Under the pieces are notes generated by a model that saw nothing but the letters and a program-made list of their open reading frames with translations, was not told the origin of the DNA and made no database searches. This document shows positions 2,876 to 39,255 of a stretch of DNA of 57,576 bases, one piece after another; position 1 is the first letter of the stretch, and each line of letters starts with the position of its first letter. The stretch is from an uncultured Clostridia bacterium (lineage in GTDB: Bacteria; Bacillota; Clostridia; TANB77; CAG-508). Location of the stretch: NCBI GenBank assembly GCA_947589265.1, contig CANQAI010000002.1, positions 1 to 57,576 of the forward strand, in the 5' to 3' direction. The translations under genes and the position numbers were made by a program.

Positions 2876-4198
2876 ATGTCAAAAGCAACAGTTGCAATTA
2901 TAGGAAGACCCAATGTAGGGAAATCTACCTTTTTTAATTATATAGTAGGAAAAAGAATTTCTATTGTAGAAGATACACCAGGCGTTACAAGAGACAGAGT
3001 ATATGCAGATGCTACTTGGAGAGATAGAGACTTTACCTTAATAGATACCGGAGGCATTGAACCAGAAAGTGATGACACTATAACTATTCAAATGAGAAAT
3101 CAAGCAAATATTGCAATAGAGCTTGCAGATGTAATAGTATTTTTAACAGATATTAAGCAAGGAGTAACTGCATCAGATAAAGACATTGCACTAATGCTTA
3201 AAAAATCTAAAAAGCCGGTTATATTAGTTTGCAATAAGTCAGATACTTATGGAGAAGTTCCAAATGAACTATACGAATTTTACAATTTAGGACTTGGAGA
3301 GCCTTATGCAGTATCTGCAGTAAATGCTAAGGGAATTGGAGATGTATTAGATGCTATTTTTGAAAAGTTACCACCTCAAACAGAAAAAAATGAAGATGAC
3401 CTAGTTATAAAAGTAGCAATGATAGGAAAGCCAAATGTAGGAAAATCTTCACTTATAAATAAAATACTAGGAGAAAATAGAGTAATAGTAAGTGATATAG
3501 CAGGAACAACTAGAGATGCTATAGATTCGGAATTTGAAAATGAGTTTGGTAAATATGTATTTATAGATACAGCAGGAATTAGAAGAAAAAGTAAAGTAGA
3601 TGATAACCTAGAAAAATATAGCGTAGTAAGAAGCATGCTTGCAATAGAAAGAGCAGATGTGTGTGTTTTAATGCTAGATGCAAATGAAGGAGTAACTGCT
3701 CAAGATGCAAAAATAGCAGGAGAAGCACATGAAGCAGGGAAAGGCATAATTATTGCAGTAAATAAATGGGACGAAATTGAAAAAGACAATCAAACACTAG
3801 AAAACTATAAAAAAGAAGTATATAATAAACTATCATATTTATCGTATGCACCAATAATATTTATTTCTGCAAAAACAGGTCAAAGAGTAAATAAACTATA
3901 TGAAATGATAAATATGGTAGCAAATCAAAACGCTTTAAGAGTATCAACTTCTGTATTAAATGATATTTTAAGCGAGGCAGTAACAATTGTTCAGCCACCT
4001 ACAGACAAAGGAAAAAGACTCAAAATTTATTATATGACACAAGCAGGAACAAAACCACCAACATTTGTTGTATTTGTAAATGACAAAGACTTATTTCACT
4101 TTTCTTATGAACGTTATTTAATAAACCAAATAAGAAAAGAATTCGGAGGGCTTATTGGCACTCCAGTTAGAATGATAGTAAGAGAAAAAGGAGAGTGA
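2876..4198 (+). CDS. der: ribosome-associated GTPase Der/EngA (two GTPase domains)
   Basis: two G1 motifs GRPNVGKST and GKPNVGKSS, KH-like C-terminus. Confidence 0.95.
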   Translation: MSKATVAIIGRPNVGKSTFFNYIVGKRISIVEDTPGVTRDRVYADATWRDRDFTLIDTGGIEPESDDTITIQMRNQANIAIELADVIVFLTDIKQGVTASDKDIALMLKKSKKPVILVCNKSDTYGEVPNELYEFYNLGLGEPYAVSAVNAKGIGDVLDAIFEKLPPQTEKNEDDLVIKVAMIGKPNVGKSSLINKILGENRVIVSDIAGTTRDAIDSEFENEFGKYVFIDTAGIRRKSKVDDNLEKYSVVRSMLAIERADVCVLMLDANEGVTAQDAKIAGEAHEAGKGIIIAVNKWDEIEKDNQTLENYKKEVYNKLSYLSYAPIIFISAKTGQRVNKLYEMINMVANQNALRVSTSVLNDILSEAVTIVQPPTDKGKRLKIYYMTQAGTKPPTFVVFVNDKDLFHFSYERYLINQIRKEFGGLIGTPVRMIVREKGE

Positions 4199-5941: not shown

Positions 5942-6505
5942 ATGGAAAAAATAATTGACAATATAAAAAAAGGTGCATATAACACATATAAATATGCAGC
6001 AGAAAGTGCCGGAAAAATTGCTCGTGAAATAAAATTAAAAACACAAATGGCAAATAATAAATTACAAATTAAAGATTTATATGAAGATATAGGAAAAAAT
6101 GTATATGAAAAATATTTATTAAAAGAAAAAATAGACATTGATTCAGACTTCACAACTGATTGTTCAATGATAGACATTTTGGCAGGAGAAATAGAAGAAA
6201 TTCGTAAAGAAATATTAAGCTTAAAAGAACTAAAGCAATGTCCGGAATGTAATTATGAAATTGGTATAGATTATCATTATTGCCCTAATTGTGGATATGA
6301 GCAAGACCTAGACAAAAAAGACATGAAAAACGATGGTCCTGCAACAATAGAAACAACAGACAATATAGATAAAACTTTAAAAAGGAAAAATAACTTCAAT
6401 GACTATGACATGAGCGAAGATGATACAATAAATGAAAACGACACAGATTATGAAAAAACAGAAAGCCAAGATATAGAAAACGAAGAAATAGAAGATGATG
6501 AATAA
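5942..6505 (+). CDS. zinc-ribbon domain protein with acidic C-terminal tail
   Basis: [19 protein letters not shown] zinc ribbon; no closer family recognised. Confidence 0.55.
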
Positions 6506-13573: not shown

Positions 13574-13610
13574 TTATAATTTACAAATATTTATAATTAA
13601 ATTAAAGTTC

Positions 13611-13720
13611 TTGCATAGTATAGTTTTTTTGCTTTTCAAATGCCCATTGCTAGTCAAGCAAATTCGAAGAAGAACGTCAGAACATGACCTTTCAAAACTG
13701 TAAAAACTAGTACTATGCAA
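13611..13720 (+). repeat. structured intergenic repeat, copy B (divergent)
   Basis: shares core TTTTCAAATGCCC(A)TTGC ... CAGAAC(AT)GACCT(T)TCAAAACTG with copies A and C; outer stem differs (ttgcatagta/tactatgcaa) but stays complementary. Confidence 0.7.
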
Positions 13721-13775
13721 TTATATATAAAACAATTAACTAGTAATACAAATATTAAAAAATTTTAAAAAATAC

Positions 13776-30233: not shown

Positions 30234-30346
30234 GGCTTAAATAGCACTAGTTTTCTTGTTTTTCAAATGCCCGTTGCAGATGAAAATTCAAAGAGGAAAG
30301 TTCAGAACGGGACCTCTCAAAACTGCGAAAATAGTACTATTTAAGC
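30234..30346 (+). repeat. structured intergenic repeat, copy C
   Basis: about 90% identical to copy A over both arms; apical region differs. Confidence 0.8.
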
Positions 30347-30440
30347 TTTAATGTAATTATAACTATTATGTAGTAATAAATTAGCCAACAAAAAACACAT
30401 AAATACTTGCTAAACCCAATAAAAAAGTATATAATGCAAA

Positions 30441-35181: not shown

Positions 35182-36573
35182 ATGGGAAAAATAACTAATA
35201 AATTAACAGACTGGAAAAATAGATTACAAGATAGACACATGCTTAGTATTATTGTAGTATTATTTGCAATAATAATAGCAATGGGAGTATGGATTTATAA
35301 AAAACAAGTAGATTATAGGCAAGCCTCAGAAAATGGGTATAATATGGCATTTTTTGAATTAGTAGATTATGTACAAAATGTAGAAACATATTTAGCAAAA
35401 TCAATAATTTCTAGTACTCCAGAGCATGGAGCAGAAACACTAACAAATGTATGGAGAGAAGCAAACTTAGCCCAGGTTTATTTATCCAGACTTCCAATAG
35501 AAAGTAACGAACTAGAAAAAACTGCAAAATTTTTAAACCAAGTAAGTGATTATAGTTACTCACTGTCTAGAAAAAATATATATAACGAAGAGCTTTCACA
35601 AGAAGACTTAGATAATTTGCAAGAACTTCATGACTATAGTGTAGAATTAGAAAATACTTTAAACCAGCTATCAGCAGATATGAATGAAGGAAGAATTAGC
35701 TGGAGTGAATTAACTAAAAAAGGAAACATAGCCTTTGCTCAAGAAGTAAGCAATATTTCAAAAGATAGCTTTAGCAACTTAGAAGAAAACTTTCACGAAT
35801 ATTCTGGCTTAATATATGATGGCGCATTTTCAGAGCACATGACATCAGCTGAAAAGAAAGGCTTAACAGGTGAAAACATTAGTGAAGAAAAAGCAAAAGA
35901 AATAGCAGAAAAATTTATTGGTAAAGATAAAATACAAGAAATTTCTTTATCAGGAAAATCAGAAAACACAGATATGGTAACATATGACTTTAACGCAAAA
36001 GTAAATGGCGAAAAAGATGCAAATGTGGTAATTTCTATATCAGAAAAAGGTGGACATGTAGTATTTATGAACTATAATAGAAATATTGAAGCAGAAAGTG
36101 TTTCACAAGAAAGAGCAGATGAAATTGGAAAAAAATTCTTAGAAGAACATGATTTTCCAAATATGAAAGAAACTTATTACTTAAAAGAAAGTGGAATAGT
36201 TACAATAAATTATGCTTATGAACAAGATGGAGTCGTTATTTATCCGGATCTAGTAAAGCTAAAAGTAGCATTAGATAATGGCGAAATAATGGGAATTGAA
36301 ACAACAGGATATTTAAATTCACATCAAGAAAGAGATTTACCAGAAGTTAAAATTACAAAACAGCAAGCAAAAAGTAGCTTAAATCCAAAATTAGATATTA
36401 AAAGTGAAAATTTAGGAATTATTCCAACAGAATGGAAAACAGAAGTAATGTGTTGGGAATTTAAAGGTAAAGTAAACGATACAGACTTTTTAGTATATAT
36501 AAATTGTCAAACAGGAAAAGAAGAAGATATATTAGTAATAGTAAATACCCCAAACGGAACTTTAACACATTAA
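35182..36573 (+). CDS. ypeB: germination protein YpeB
   Basis: N-terminal TM helix, helical region, C-terminal PepSY-like repeats; sleB-ypeB operon order. Confidence 0.8.
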   Translation: MGKITNKLTDWKNRLQDRHMLSIIVVLFAIIIAMGVWIYKKQVDYRQASENGYNMAFFELVDYVQNVETYLAKSIISSTPEHGAETLTNVWREANLAQVYLSRLPIESNELEKTAKFLNQVSDYSYSLSRKNIYNEELSQEDLDNLQELHDYSVELENTLNQLSADMNEGRISWSELTKKGNIAFAQEVSNISKDSFSNLEENFHEYSGLIYDGAFSEHMTSAEKKGLTGENISEEKAKEIAEKFIGKDKIQEISLSGKSENTDMVTYDFNAKVNGEKDANVVISISEKGGHVVFMNYNRNIEAESVSQERADEIGKKFLEEHDFPNMKETYYLKESGIVTINYAYEQDGVVIYPDLVKLKVALDNGEIMGIETTGYLNSHQERDLPEVKITKQQAKSSLNPKLDIKSENLGIIPTEWKTEVMCWEFKGKVNDTDFLVYINCQTGKEEDILVIVNTPNGTLTH

Positions 36574-36696
36574 AATCTAGATAAATTAATTTGGAAAAAA
36601 TTTTAAAAATATTTTTCAAAAAATAAAACAAAATAATAATGTGAAAATATAATTTTTCACAATTAAAACTAAAAGATCTGTTAGGAGGTAGTTATT

Positions 36697-36873
36697 ATGT
36701 CAAATAACAGAAAACTAATTTCTGATAAATTAAGAGAAGAAATAGCAAAAGAACTTGGAGTATATGACCAAGTAAAACAAGACGGAGGATGGGGAAACGT
36801 ACCATCTAAAACTTGTGGTAATATTGTAAGCAAAGCAATTGAAATTGCAAACAGAACAGCTCAAAATAGCTAG
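36697..36873 (+). CDS. alpha/beta-type small acid-soluble spore protein (58 aa, below the ORF-track cutoff)
   Basis: AGGAGG RBS; translation MSNNRKLISDKLREEIAKELGVYDQVKQDGGWGNVPSKTCGNIVSKAIEIANRTAQNS has the KxEIAxELGV and G-x-V-x-S-K-x-x-G-x-(I/V) SASP pattern. Confidence 0.75.
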   Translation: MSNNRKLISDKLREEIAKELGVYDQVKQDGGWGNVPSKTCGNIVSKAIEIANRTAQNS

Positions 36874-36897
36874 TTTTAATTTAATAGTATTTAGCTA

Positions 36898-36935
36898 AAA
36901 GGAAACTCATTAATTTGAGTTTCCTTTATTTTCAT
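36898..36935. terminator. bidirectional terminator (SASP gene / toxN-like gene)
   Basis: aggaaactca/tgagtttcct stem followed by a T-rich run. Confidence 0.65.
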
Positions 36936-37421
36936 TTATACTTTGCTTTTCTAATAACTTGAAATTACAAGATATTGTTTTAAGGAAGTTTCTTTTATGC
37001 TTTGTTACAGCAACATACATTTTATTAGCCCTTTTGTATATCTCTTCTTTGTTAGAATTTATATATCTATATTCGCCGATATTAAATCTTTATATTTTTT
37101 ATCCTGTTTATTGTATTCTAAAACAGATGTCACCTTTATATTGCTAGGAACTGGTATCATAGCTGAAAATTTAATAATTGCTAATGGTTTCTTTCTCCTA
37201 TTGTATACCAAAAAGAAACTAGGATTATTTTTATATTTTTGATAATGAATTTTATAAGAATATAAAGGTACAAAATATTCATAACTTTCTATTCTTAATA
37301 CTATTCCTAAATATGGTCTACTATGCCCAAGTTCTTCTTTATTATAGCTTACATTACTTTCAAATTTACTTAAATATTTAATATAATTTTTATCAATTGT
37401 ATAAAATAATAATTCTTCCAT
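36910..37421 (-). pseudogene. ToxN/AbiQ-family type III toxin (endoribonuclease), -1 frame break near 37062-37090
   Basis: N-terminal 120 aa (FYTIDKNYIKYLSKFESNV...RPYLGIVLRIESYEYFVPLYS) matches the ToxN/AbiQ pattern; the C-terminus IGEYRYINSNKEEIYKRANKMYVAV...ISCNFKLLEKQ continues in the -1 frame to stop 36910; total about 170 aa. Confidence 0.75.
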
Positions 37422-37439
37422 TTTTCCTCACTTTTTTGT

Positions 37440-37477
37440 AAAATATAAGGAGGTACACTTTTTAAAATGTACCCCCC
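37440..37477 (-). terminator. hairpin (attenuating terminator) between antitoxin repeats and toxin gene
   Basis: minus strand ggggggtaca-N10-tgtacctcc followed by a T-rich tract, just upstream of the toxin RBS. Confidence 0.55.
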
Positions 37478-37490
37478 TAATTTAAAACTG

Positions 37491-37612
37491 CTTATTTATA
37501 AGGCTTAAGCATTACCTAATTTCAAATCAGTTCATTTATAAGGCTTGAACTTTACCTAATTTCAAATCGTTCTTTTTTAGGTAAGAACTTCCTATTAGTA
37601 ATCAAATGATTA
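37491..37612 (-). ncRNA. ToxI-like antitoxin RNA array: two ~40-nt tandem repeats plus one degenerate repeat
   Basis: atttataaggctt(a/g)a(g/a)c(a/t)ttacctaatttcaaatc repeated at 37494 and 37534 (period 40); degenerate third unit 37571-37612; lies between promoter and toxin gene. Confidence 0.7.
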
Positions 37613-37628
37613 CCCTTTTAGTATATTA

Positions 37629-37657
37629 ATTATACTATTTTTTATTCTTTGTGTCAA
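37629..37657 (-). promoter_or_regulatory. promoter of the type III TA locus
   Basis: minus strand TTGACA, 17-nt spacer, TATAAT; ends about 10 nt upstream of the repeat array. Confidence 0.6.
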
Positions 37658-37839
37658 TGAAATAAGCTAATTTTTTACCTAACTACCTTTACCTAACTAT
37701 TTCTTTCGTAATTTTAGTTGCAGTTTATAAATAATTAGAATATAATAGCAATAAATTATACGTAAAATTAAAAAATATTAATAAGAATTAAAAAACTAGG
37801 TTTATAGGTACCTATTTTATCAAAAAACCTAAATATATT

Positions 37840-39255
37840 ATGCAAGGAATTAAAACAAAAATGAATAAAACAATAACAGTAAGAAATATATTAGATGTAA
37901 CAGGTGGAAAATTAATTTATGGAAATGAAAACTTAATTTGTGAAAAATTTTCAAAAGACACAAGAGAACTTAATAAAGGTGAAGTCTATGTAGGACTTCA
38001 AGGTGAGAACTTCAATGGAAGTACATTATATGAGCAAGCTCTAGAAAAAGAAGCGATAGCCTGCATTTTACAAGGGGTAGAAGTACCAAAAGAAACTATA
38101 CAAAAATATCCAAATACAGCGATTATATTAGTAGAAAACACAGTAAAAGCACTTCAACAAATTGCTACATATAAAAGAAGCTTATATAACATACCAGTAG
38201 TTGCAATTACTGGGAGCGTAGGAAAAACAAGCACCAAAGATATGGTTGCAAGTGTACTTTCTAAAAAATATAAAGTATTAAAAACAATGGGAAATTATAA
38301 CAACGAAATAGGCTTGCCACTAACAATACTTAACTTAACAAATGAAGAAATAATGGTTTTAGAAATGGGAATGAATTCTTTTGGAGAAATAAGTATACTT
38401 ACAAACATAGCAAAACCAGATGTAGCAGTAATCACAAACATTGGCACAGCACATATTGGCATGCTTGGCTCAAGAGAAAATATTTTAAAAGCGAAACTAG
38501 AAATTTTAGAAGGATTAAACCCTAATGGAACAGTAGTTATAAATTATGATAACGACTTACTACATAACTGGTATGAAAAAGAAAACCAAAATTATAATAT
38601 AATTACTTATGGCTTAAATAAACAAAGTAACATTCTAGGCCAAAACCCTAAGCTTCACGAAAACGGAAGTGAATGTGAAGTAATACTTAATGGTGAAAAA
38701 TATAACCTACATATTCCAGTAGGAGGAGAACATTTTATACAAAATAGCTTATGTGCAATAGCTGTTGCAAAAATATTTAACATAGAAATGCCCAAAATAA
38801 TAGAAGGAATTGCAAACTTTGAACTTACAAAAAAAAGAATGGAAATTAAAAAAGCCAAAAATGGAGCAAAAGTAATTAATGATTGCTATAATGCAAACTA
38901 TGACTCAATGAAAGCAGCCATAGATTACTTAGGGAAATTTCCAAACAGTAAAAAAATAGCTGTATTAGGAGATATGCTAGAACTTGGTGAGTATAGCAAA
39001 GAACTTCATCAAAAAGTTGGTGAAGTAGTTGCAAACAACAAAATAAATTTATTAATCTGCGTAGGAGAAGACTCTAAATATATAGCACAAAAAGCCCAAG
39101 AAATGGGAATGAACAAAGAAAAAATATTCCTATGTAAAACTAACAATGAGGCAATTAGTATTTTGCAAAAAGAAATGAATGAGCAAGATGTAGTTTTGCT
39201 TAAAGCATCAAACGGATTGCACTTTACTGAAATTTGTGATGCAATTTGTGATTAA
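37840..39255 (+). CDS. murF: UDP-N-acetylmuramoyl-tripeptide--D-alanyl-D-alanine ligase (start uncertain: 37840 or 37861)
   Basis: ITGSVGKTSTKDM P-loop and Mur ligase middle and C-terminal domains. Confidence 0.92.
   Translation: MQGIKTKMNKTITVRNILDVTGGKLIYGNENLICEKFSKDTRELNKGEVYVGLQGENFNGSTLYEQALEKEAIACILQGVEVPKETIQKYPNTAIILVENTVKALQQIATYKRSLYNIPVVAITGSVGKTSTKDMVASVLSKKYKVLKTMGNYNNEIGLPLTILNLTNEEIMVLEMGMNSFGEISILTNIAKPDVAVITNIGTAHIGMLGSRENILKAKLEILEGLNPNGTVVINYDNDLLHNWYEKENQNYNIITYGLNKQSNILGQNPKLHENGSECEVILNGEKYNLHIPVGGEHFIQNSLCAIAVAKIFNIEMPKIIEGIANFELTKKRMEIKKAKNGAKVINDCYNANYDSMKAAIDYLGKFPNSKKIAVLGDMLELGEYSKELHQKVGEVVANNKINLLICVGEDSKYIAQKAQEMGMNKEKIFLCKTNNEAISILQKEMNEQDVVLLKASNGLHFTEICDAICD

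Follow-up and report, generated by a model that had tools for sequence, protein, structure and literature searches.

A ToxIN-family type III toxin-antitoxin cassette with a probably inactivated toxin gene in an uncultured Clostridia bacterium

The window analyzed here is a 57,576-nucleotide stretch of DNA from an uncultured Clostridia bacterium (contig CANQAI010000002.1, positions 1 to 57,576). Between a gene for an alpha/beta-type small acid-soluble protein (SASP) and a Mur ligase gene (murF-like), it contains a locus of the ToxIN family within the type III toxin-antitoxin systems. On the minus strand a promoter, a 5′ hairpin, three repeat units, a terminator, a ribosome-binding site (RBS) and a ToxN/AbiQ-family gene follow one another, and the coordinates of these features are given in Table 1. 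A first-pass annotation had placed a type III locus of the ToxIN/AbiQ type between the SASP gene and murF, and the toxin domain, the fold of a homologue, the architecture across genomes and the pseudoknot template are all in agreement with that assignment. Taken as a whole, the locus is likely to be a cassette of ~790 bp that was acquired horizontally, is sited between the SASP terminator and the murF promoter, and has recently suffered inactivation of its toxin.

The toxin gene had been placed by the first-pass annotation from 37421 down to 36910, with a frame correction foreseen; the assignment to the ToxN/AbiQ family stands, and the frame is split by a 1-nt deletion. The 170-residue protein obtained by restoring the missing base, for which a profile search had been suggested, matches the Pfam family ToxN_toxin (PF13958) with an E value of 9.3e-42 (143.3 bits, against a curated cut-off of 25) and the PADLOC AbiQ model with an E value of 7.2e-39 (131.6 bits). 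The two fragments are also recognized separately: the 120-residue 5′ fragment covers PF13958 profile positions 3–112 (E 9.4e-29, 101.1 bits; PADLOC AbiQ, 1.3e-25), and the downstream fragment covers positions 112–155 (E 1.1e-8, 35.8 bits), contiguous with the first. Among the NCBIfam models, none matched the repaired toxin apart from a spurious 13-bit match. A phmmer sequence search of the PDB returned ToxN_Bt (4ATO, 5.8e-22), AbiQ (1.4e-13), Escherichia coli ToxN (2.1e-13) and ToxN_Pa (9.4e-13). The fold was tested on P0001, an intact homologue that is 89% identical to the window toxin. Comparison of its AlphaFold model (predicted local distance difference test score, pLDDT, 88) with the structures 4ATO, 4GLK, 7D8O and 2XD0 resulted in query-normalised template modeling (TM) scores of 0.73–0.79, indicating that P0001 has the ToxN fold, which combines a twisted beta core and a long kinked helix, H3, through which ToxI is mainly recognized (PMC5086642). 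In the alignment PLYSYK, the predicted active-site motif of the window toxin, corresponds to PLLSYK in AbiQ and to PLTSPK in ToxN_Pa, where the active-site residues are the catalytic Ser51 and T52/S53/K55, respectively (PMC5086642). S55 and K57, both invariant in 28 clade members, are the equivalents of AbiQ Ser51 and of S53/K55 in ToxN_Pa. The C-terminal third of the toxin is highly conserved in the clade.

The deletion lies in the codons that lead into this C-terminal part. The relatives read ...ATATCAGCAGAATAT... here; in the window the corresponding letters are ...ATATCGGC-GAATAT..., exactly one base being absent between 37075 and 37074. That base is present in each of the 14 intact relatives aligned, which read ...TCAGCAGAA..., and the intact-frame form of the window would be ...TCGGCAGAA.... 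As it stands, the gene runs into a stop after 120 codons, at 37059. In the P0001 model the break falls within the first half of the kinked helix (helices 108–123 and 125–141), with the rest of the C-terminal helices beyond it. Judged from this model, the truncated product would be without most of the kinked RNA-binding helix and without the conserved C terminus. Abortive-infection phage defence, which the first-pass annotation had named as the role of ToxIN, AbiQ and CptIN systems, is therefore a property of the family that this copy most likely no longer provides, since the 1-nt deletion would leave it with no working system, a consequence that the annotation had not drawn from its frame correction. 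A real and recent inactivation of the toxin has a good probability. The lesion appears recent because nothing else in the gene has decayed: with the base restored, the 170-residue protein retains every one of the 52 positions that do not vary among 28 clade members, 15 of them past the shift.

The same preservation can be read differently. If the missing base were a sequencing or assembly artefact, the locus would be a functional toxIN abortive-infection system, which is unlikely but would account for all 52 clade-invariant residues being kept on both sides of the shift, for a promoter, units and terminator identical to the commonest alleles, and for a downstream frame in which no stop occurs over 55 codons (P about 0.025, given the composition). 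The change from GCAGAA to GCGAA, however, is not within a homopolymer, which is unusual for an assembly indel, and the same truncated allele is present on a separately assembled ENA contig (L027) that is 100% identical over 2,024 nt. Scans of genomes and metagenomes, moreover, gave no intact allele of this lineage; exact-match scans of these collections found neither the frameshifted nor the restored allele. Several considerations weigh against a genuine lesion. An assembly or consensus error could have produced it, for the ENA contig has a coverage of ~3x and may share its sample with the window, so that its independence is not assured. A gene that shows no further degeneration is as compatible with an error as with a very recent mutation, and the scans of the other collections, having given neither allele, can be placed on this side too.

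Toxin decay elsewhere in the clade also argues for a genuine inactivation in the window. Related loci were fetched from 26 species-representative genomes, of which 19 were fully aligned from promoter to ATG. Broken toxins are found in four of the 26, indicating that toxin decay is common in the clade: L023 has an internal deletion (136 residues), L024 a 5′ truncation without a ToxI array, L025 an early stop at codon 44, and L026 a frameshift at about codon 83 that yields a 99-residue product. ToxI arrays are retained in L023, L025 and L026 despite the disrupted toxins.

It is very improbable that the gene still yields an active toxin, whether by programmed −1 ribosomal frameshifting or in the form of a truncated nuclease of 116 residues with Ser55 and Lys57 in place. 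The catalytic residues do lie within the retained N-terminal part, and the −1 frame is already open a short way upstream of the frame-0 stop. The 30-nt overlap of the two frames, however, contains no slippery heptamer of the form X XXY YYZ, none of more than 170 relatives uses a frameshift, and the lost C-terminal third is the highly conserved part that contains the RNA-binding kinked helix. An active toxin unable to bind its antitoxin would be lethal and would thus not persist. Programmed frameshifting was rejected, the slippery site being absent and the relatives all being in frame. To judge from the sequence, the window toxin is most likely non-functional, a toxin pseudogene behind an intact promoter and array from which only the antitoxin RNA would still be made.

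The array itself is well preserved. Tandem Repeats Finder (TRF) reports a period of 40 with 2.6 copies and 82% matches at 37476–37576, and three ToxI-like units, A, B and C, can be delimited (Table 1). Because a single MAFFT alignment of the three unit types mis-registered unit A, units B and C were assessed separately from unit A. Unit B has the same sequence in 7 of the 19 aligned loci and is nearly invariant in the others, and both B and C are nearly invariant even among loci whose toxins are only 71–83% identical. Unit A is degenerate in L014, L019, L020 and L022. Over the 19 loci the promoter-to-ATG region has a mean column identity of 86%; from the −35 box to the ATG, conservation is nearly base-for-base in 24 of the 26 related loci, and at least 24 genomes of gut Clostridia retain the module from promoter to stop. 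Only two antitoxin units are present in L016, L018, L023 and L026, either A and C or A and a B/C hybrid with the stem GCUCA/UGAGC. The toxins of L016 and L018 are intact all the same, so a third unit is not a requirement.

Each unit can be fitted to an H-type pseudoknot with stem 1 formed by UAGG/CCU(U)A and stem 2 by GUUCA/UGAAC, in the element order 1a-2a-1b-2b. The loops of 4, 2 and 4–5 nt fall within the ToxI template, which has two nested stems of 3–5 bp and loops of 3–4, 1–2 and up to 7 nt (group I) (Blower et al. 2012; PMC3401426). For the pseudoknot stems 97.6% of cells are paired, compared with 13–57% when the partners are slid, and two stem-2 pairs are compensatory. For the full proposed structure, comprising the 5′ hairpin, the unit hairpins, the pseudoknot stems and the terminator, the corresponding values are 98.4% and 34–54%. 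Stem 2 differs between units by compensatory changes, being GUUCA/UGAAC in B, GCUUA/UAAGC in C, GCUCA/UGAGC in L026 and GUUCUU/AAGAAC in A; in unit A, stem 1 is also compensatory, with UUUAG/CUAAA in L018 and UUGAG/CUCAA in L023. Across loci there is little covariation, since orthologous units are almost unchanged.

An AA/AU-type motif is found at every unit junction (GAAAUUAGGU; motif at GAAAUUAGG), and AA/AU is the motif cleaved by ToxN_Pa (PMC5086642). The junction GAAAUUAGGU resembles GAAAUUCAGGU of ToxI_Pa, the sequence of which was verified in pECA1039, and AAAAUUGGUG of ToxI_Bt, the motif AAAUU(N)(A)GGU being common to the window units and both of these RNAs. These junctions are the candidate processing sites.

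Several points weigh against this picture of the RNA. Stem 1 is invariant in units B and C, hence covariation supports it only in unit A, and the stem-2 covariation amounts to few independent events among paralogous units. The whole-leader minimum free energy (MFE) fold prefers some other pairings, such as that of the ACCUAA loop of unit A with a downstream UUAGGU; this fold was excluded from the structure decision because it cannot represent pseudoknots and gave alternative pairings. The cleavage site, finally, is assigned only by analogy with the characterized toxin.

The Rfam ToxI model (RF02519) gave no match at E <= 10 in positions 36500–38000, and a scan of the locus against Rfam at permissive thresholds gave only two chance-level matches, one to a snoRNA family and one to a miRNA family. 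As a positive control, the same model found the three ToxI_Bt units and missed ToxI_Pa. RF02519 thus covers only the Bt subtype, and its miss here does not argue against a ToxI function; it reflects a gap in the model and not novelty of kind. It detects the Bacillus thuringiensis units at positions 411–512 of L113, and in RefSeq the array of the archetypal ToxI_Pa is entered as a 'hypothetical protein' coding sequence (L114, pECA1039, 872–1093). The antitoxin RNAs of this family are therefore systematically missed or mis-annotated. A different nature of the repeats, as a cis-regulatory leader or as AT-rich repetition that arose by chance upstream of a ToxN-like gene, is hardly credible. Such a reading may appeal to the lack of an Rfam match, but across 24 genomes units B and C vary less than the toxin protein, the position, number and length of the repeats, the terminator and the pseudoknot-compatible pairing match the defining type III architecture, and the silence of a model that also misses archetypal ToxI_Pa is uninformative.

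The elements around the array complete this architecture, in which repeats, a Rho-independent terminator and a toxin gene are served by a single upstream promoter (PMC5086642). As read from the sequence, the locus has a single predicted promoter and a predicted terminator between repeats and toxin, and both are conserved. The promoter at 37657–37629 is the sole 12/12 consensus match in the region, and both of its hexamers are invariant across the 19 aligned loci. The 5′ hairpin shows one compensatory A-U to G-C change across loci as well as G-U variants, and may have a stabilising or boundary role. The terminator is a G+C-rich hairpin of 15 pairs, where 0.4 such sites would be expected in shuffled sequence, and two to three of its pairs show compensatory changes across loci. 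The first-pass annotation had anticipated most of these elements. Its promoter stands with all 12 positions matching, its hairpin with a T-rich tail lies within a few bases of the stem at 37479–37446, its likening of the A-rich tracts to ToxN-family cleavage sites agrees with the motif at the unit junctions, and the pseudoknot check that it had suggested gave the fit to the ToxI template described above. Its tandem array was also borne out, with a period of 40 and three units, but the span given for it, 37612–37491, is shifted and takes in part of the 5′ hairpin at 37614–37597. In the syntenic locus L017 an insertion of ~65 nt with its own small hairpin (GAAAGAAATCAATCTTTCATTTC) lies between the terminator and the start codon of the toxin, at about 2935–3000.

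Extra copies of a motif had likewise been noted upstream of the promoter, and TTAGGTAA is indeed present at 37675–37682 and 37689–37696; five of its seven sites in the 57.6-kb window fall within 185 nt here. The 14-nt tandem duplication that carries these copies is private to the allele of the window, the corresponding position of the syntenic loci L001 and L017 being without it. In sequence it is similar to the junction of the ToxI units, AAATTAGGTAAAG, but it sits outside the predicted transcript.

The cassette is flanked on one side by genes for a SleB-like hydrolase, YpeB and the SASP and on the other by the murF-like gene and Ddl. In two close relatives, L100 and L103, whose YpeB is 94% and MurF 85–86% identical to those of the window, the gap between SASP and murF is only ~110 nt and contains no toxIN. 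All three have the same SASP terminator and the same murF promoter (GTTGCAGTTTATAAATAATTAGAATATAAT, beginning at window position 37717). The empty site in these relatives identifies toxIN as an insert of ~790 bp. One arm of the SASP terminator doubles as the last six toxin codons (KGNSN and stop), and this hairpin probably terminates toxIN as well.

The distribution of the cassette points to horizontal spread. Its toxin has relatives in more than 170 protein clusters, at 68–89% identity, in gut assemblies labelled 'uncultured Clostridia/Clostridium'. The SASP-murF location is shared with the window only by L001 and L017; elsewhere the cassette is flanked by housekeeping genes of unrelated kinds, such as those for an amidase and a GH94 enzyme in the P0014 loci. 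Six genomes have a toxin 80–83% identical to that of the window, whereas their MurF is only 52–57% identical in five and 71% in the sixth, and a toxin identity so far above the MurF identity in the same genomes indicates horizontal transfer. No integrase or transposase is found near the cassette, the neighbors being housekeeping genes in both the window and the P0014 loci. A defence-island or mobile-element context was considered and is unsupported by these neighborhoods. The clade is absent from the sequenced plasmids and phages that were searched, where the best matches are at most 37% identical, and carriage by a phage or plasmid was rejected on this ground.

Some features of the adjoining murF region were also noted. 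The mechanically called murF frame starts at 37840, but homologues align only from residue 5–8 and L100 begins with MNK, which makes the ATG at 37861 the probable true start. Between the shared murF promoter and the start codon the window has ~75 nt more than L100 and L103, including the palindrome TATAGGTACCTATTTTA (region 37717–37870). The ENA contig L027 lacks 50 nt inside murF that are present at window positions 38241–38290, which splits its murF into two called genes; the difference could be either a real polymorphism or a low-coverage misassembly.

Table 1. Features of the toxIN locus and its borders in the window
Feature	Positions	Strand	Basis or remark
toxIN cassette	36928..37716 (approx.)	minus	extent relative to the empty SASP-murF site of close relatives
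Two copies of AGTTAGGTAAA (14-nt tandem duplication, AGTTAGGTAAAGGT / AGTTAGGTAAAAAA)	37675..37697	minus	upstream of the toxIN −35 box
Predicted SigA/Sigma-70-type promoter TTGACA-17-TATAAT	37629..37657 (−35, 37657-37652; −10, 37634-37629)	minus	12/12 match
5′ transcript-end hairpin GGTAATC-ATTT-GATTACT	37597..37614	minus	kept in related loci
ToxI-like unit A, 36 nt, divergent: UAGG-AA-GUUCUU-A-CCUA-AAAA-AAGAAC-GAUUUGAAAU	37559..37594	minus	locus alignment
ToxI-like unit B, 40 nt: UAGG-UAAA-GUUCA-AG-CCUUA-UAAA-UGAAC-UGAUUUGAAAU	37519..37558	minus	TRF and alignment
ToxI-like unit C, 39 nt: UAGG-UAAU-GCUUA-AG-CCUUA-UAAA-UAAGC-AGUUUUAAAU	37480..37518	minus	TRF and alignment
Predicted Rho-independent terminator at the repeats/toxin boundary	37436..37479 (stem 37479-37446, then T-rich tail)	minus	15-pair stem
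RBS GAGGA upstream of the toxin ATG	37425..37429	minus	read from sequence; (G)AGG kept in related loci
toxN 5′ part, present open reading frame, 120 aa (116 native residues, NIDI and stop)	37059..37421	minus	Pfam, PADLOC
1-nt deletion site, GCAGAA (relatives) to GCGAA (window)	37074..37075	minus	DNA alignment, 14 intact relatives
toxN 3′ part, −1 frame, 54 codons and stop	36910..37074	minus	Pfam PF13958
SASP hairpin terminator (SASP gene convergent with toxIN)	36898..36927		terminator scan and sequence reading

By analogy with characterized systems, the intact relatives would work as follows. The constitutive consensus promoter would give a transcript with the 5′ hairpin followed by three antitoxin units of about 36–40 nt, and the terminator would allow read-through into toxN in no more than a fraction of transcripts, which would leave the antitoxin RNA in excess. 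The ToxN endoribonuclease would cut the precursor at the A-rich junctions (GAA/AUUAGG, of the AA/AU type), and each freed unit would take the form of an H-type pseudoknot and bridge toxin monomers into a closed, inactive RNA-protein ring. On phage infection host transcription would be shut off, the labile RNA would decay, and free ToxN would cleave RNA and abort the infection. In the window, the deletion after codon 115/116 would truncate ToxN, removing most of the kinked helix, the main ToxI-binding surface, and everything beyond it.

There is a slight chance that the orphan three-unit array is kept for a function of its own, namely to neutralise the ToxN of incoming related gut-Clostridia cassettes (anti-addiction, or 'immunity to Abi'). 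Such a role would be akin to that of the pseudo-ToxI mimics with which phages escape ToxIN. A related and similarly improbable reading is that the conserved but non-identical units A, B and C template a defined hetero-RNA ring rather than act as interchangeable repeats. For annotation, the locus extends the ToxIN family by a gut-Clostridia clade that counts more than 170 protein clusters, with an antitoxin RNA that matches no Rfam model and would otherwise stay unannotated. For evolution, it presents a minimal promoter-to-stop cassette of ~790 bp that moves among housekeeping intergenic sites with no mobility genes nearby, and a recurrent decay of the toxin with survival of the antitoxin. Knowledge of how type III systems work is unchanged.

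Apart from toxIN, the window contains a repeated element of ~115–125 nt on the plus strand at 2522–2647, about 13610–13730 (core match 13632–13650) and 30235–30379, which also occurs in L001 at 6239–6384. Inverted repeats of 15 bp (GCTTAAATAGTACTA...TAGTACTATTTAAGC) form its ends, and its core (TTTTTCAAATGCCCGTTGC...AACGGGACCTCTCAAAACTGCG) is conserved. The window has three copies where 0.03 would be expected, and the element folds into a long hairpin (z −2.9). No Rfam family matched it at gathering score. It could be an element resembling a miniature inverted-repeat transposable element (MITE) or an undescribed small RNA.

Compared with known type III systems, the locus is an ordinary member of the ToxIN family. 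Published toxIN loci have repeats of 31–62 nt (mean 38.1) in 1.9–5.6 copies (mean 2.8) and toxins with a mean length of 168 residues (PMC3401426). The units of 36–40 nt, the approximately three copies and the 170-residue toxin are all in the middle of these ranges, which makes the locus typical. The suggestion of the first-pass annotation that the unit length might mark a distinct subfamily is accordingly not upheld, a 40-nt unit being mid-range. The closest solved toxin is that of ToxIN_Bt from B. thuringiensis plasmid pAW63 (PDB ID 4ATO; ToxI_Bt, 34 nt x 2.9; RF02519), with a phmmer E value of 5.8e-22 and a Foldseek query-normalised TM score of 0.79 at 31% identity. Both loci are from Firmicutes and have about three non-identical units with an inner stem that differs by compensatory changes, an A-rich junction followed by UUGGUG in Bt and UUAGGU in the window, a terminator before the toxin and a single promoter. 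In contrast to ToxIN_Bt, the window units are 36–40 nt long instead of 34, the RNA is not alignable and has no Rfam ToxI match, the toxin is only ~31–34% identical, and the copy is chromosomal and solitary with a frameshifted toxin gene, whereas that of Bt is plasmid-borne.

ToxIN_Pa from Pectobacterium atrosepticum plasmid pECA1039 (PDB IDs 2XDB and 2XDD; ToxI, 36 nt x 5.5) shares the Pfam family and the fold, the junction GAAAUU(C)AGGU, the 1b element (A/G)CCUU, an AA/AU cleavage motif at each junction, and the element order and loop lengths of the H-type pseudoknot. The proteins are only 24% identical, however, and the window has three diverged units where Pa has 5.5 nearly identical ones, a 5-bp stem 2 instead of 3 bp, and a Gram-positive chromosomal location with a probably inactivated toxin. 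AbiQ/antiQ from Lactococcus lactis plasmid pSRQ900 (PDB ID 4GLK; 35 nt x 2.8) resembles the locus in that the window toxin matches the PADLOC AbiQ model (E 7.2e-39), the query-normalised TM score is 0.76, the PL(L/Y)SYK motif with the catalytic serine is conserved, and there are about three repeats. It differs in its protein, which is 25% identical, and in its repeat sequence; AbiQ cuts at A/AAA. The CptIN and TenpIN systems have the same order of promoter, repeats, terminator and endoribonuclease and a distant toxin core fold (CptN, 4RMO; query-normalised TM 0.57, E 4.6e-3), but no family match at the level of sequence, only ToxN and AbiQ models being matched in Pfam and PADLOC. By sequence the window toxin falls in a separate clade, at most 37% identical to plasmid or phage ToxN, which is normal for the diverse ToxN family. 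Only two features, a 5′ hairpin that is conserved and an RNA that hardly changes from species to species, are without counterpart in the published toxIN descriptions compared, and both are minor additions to a locus that is otherwise typical of its family.

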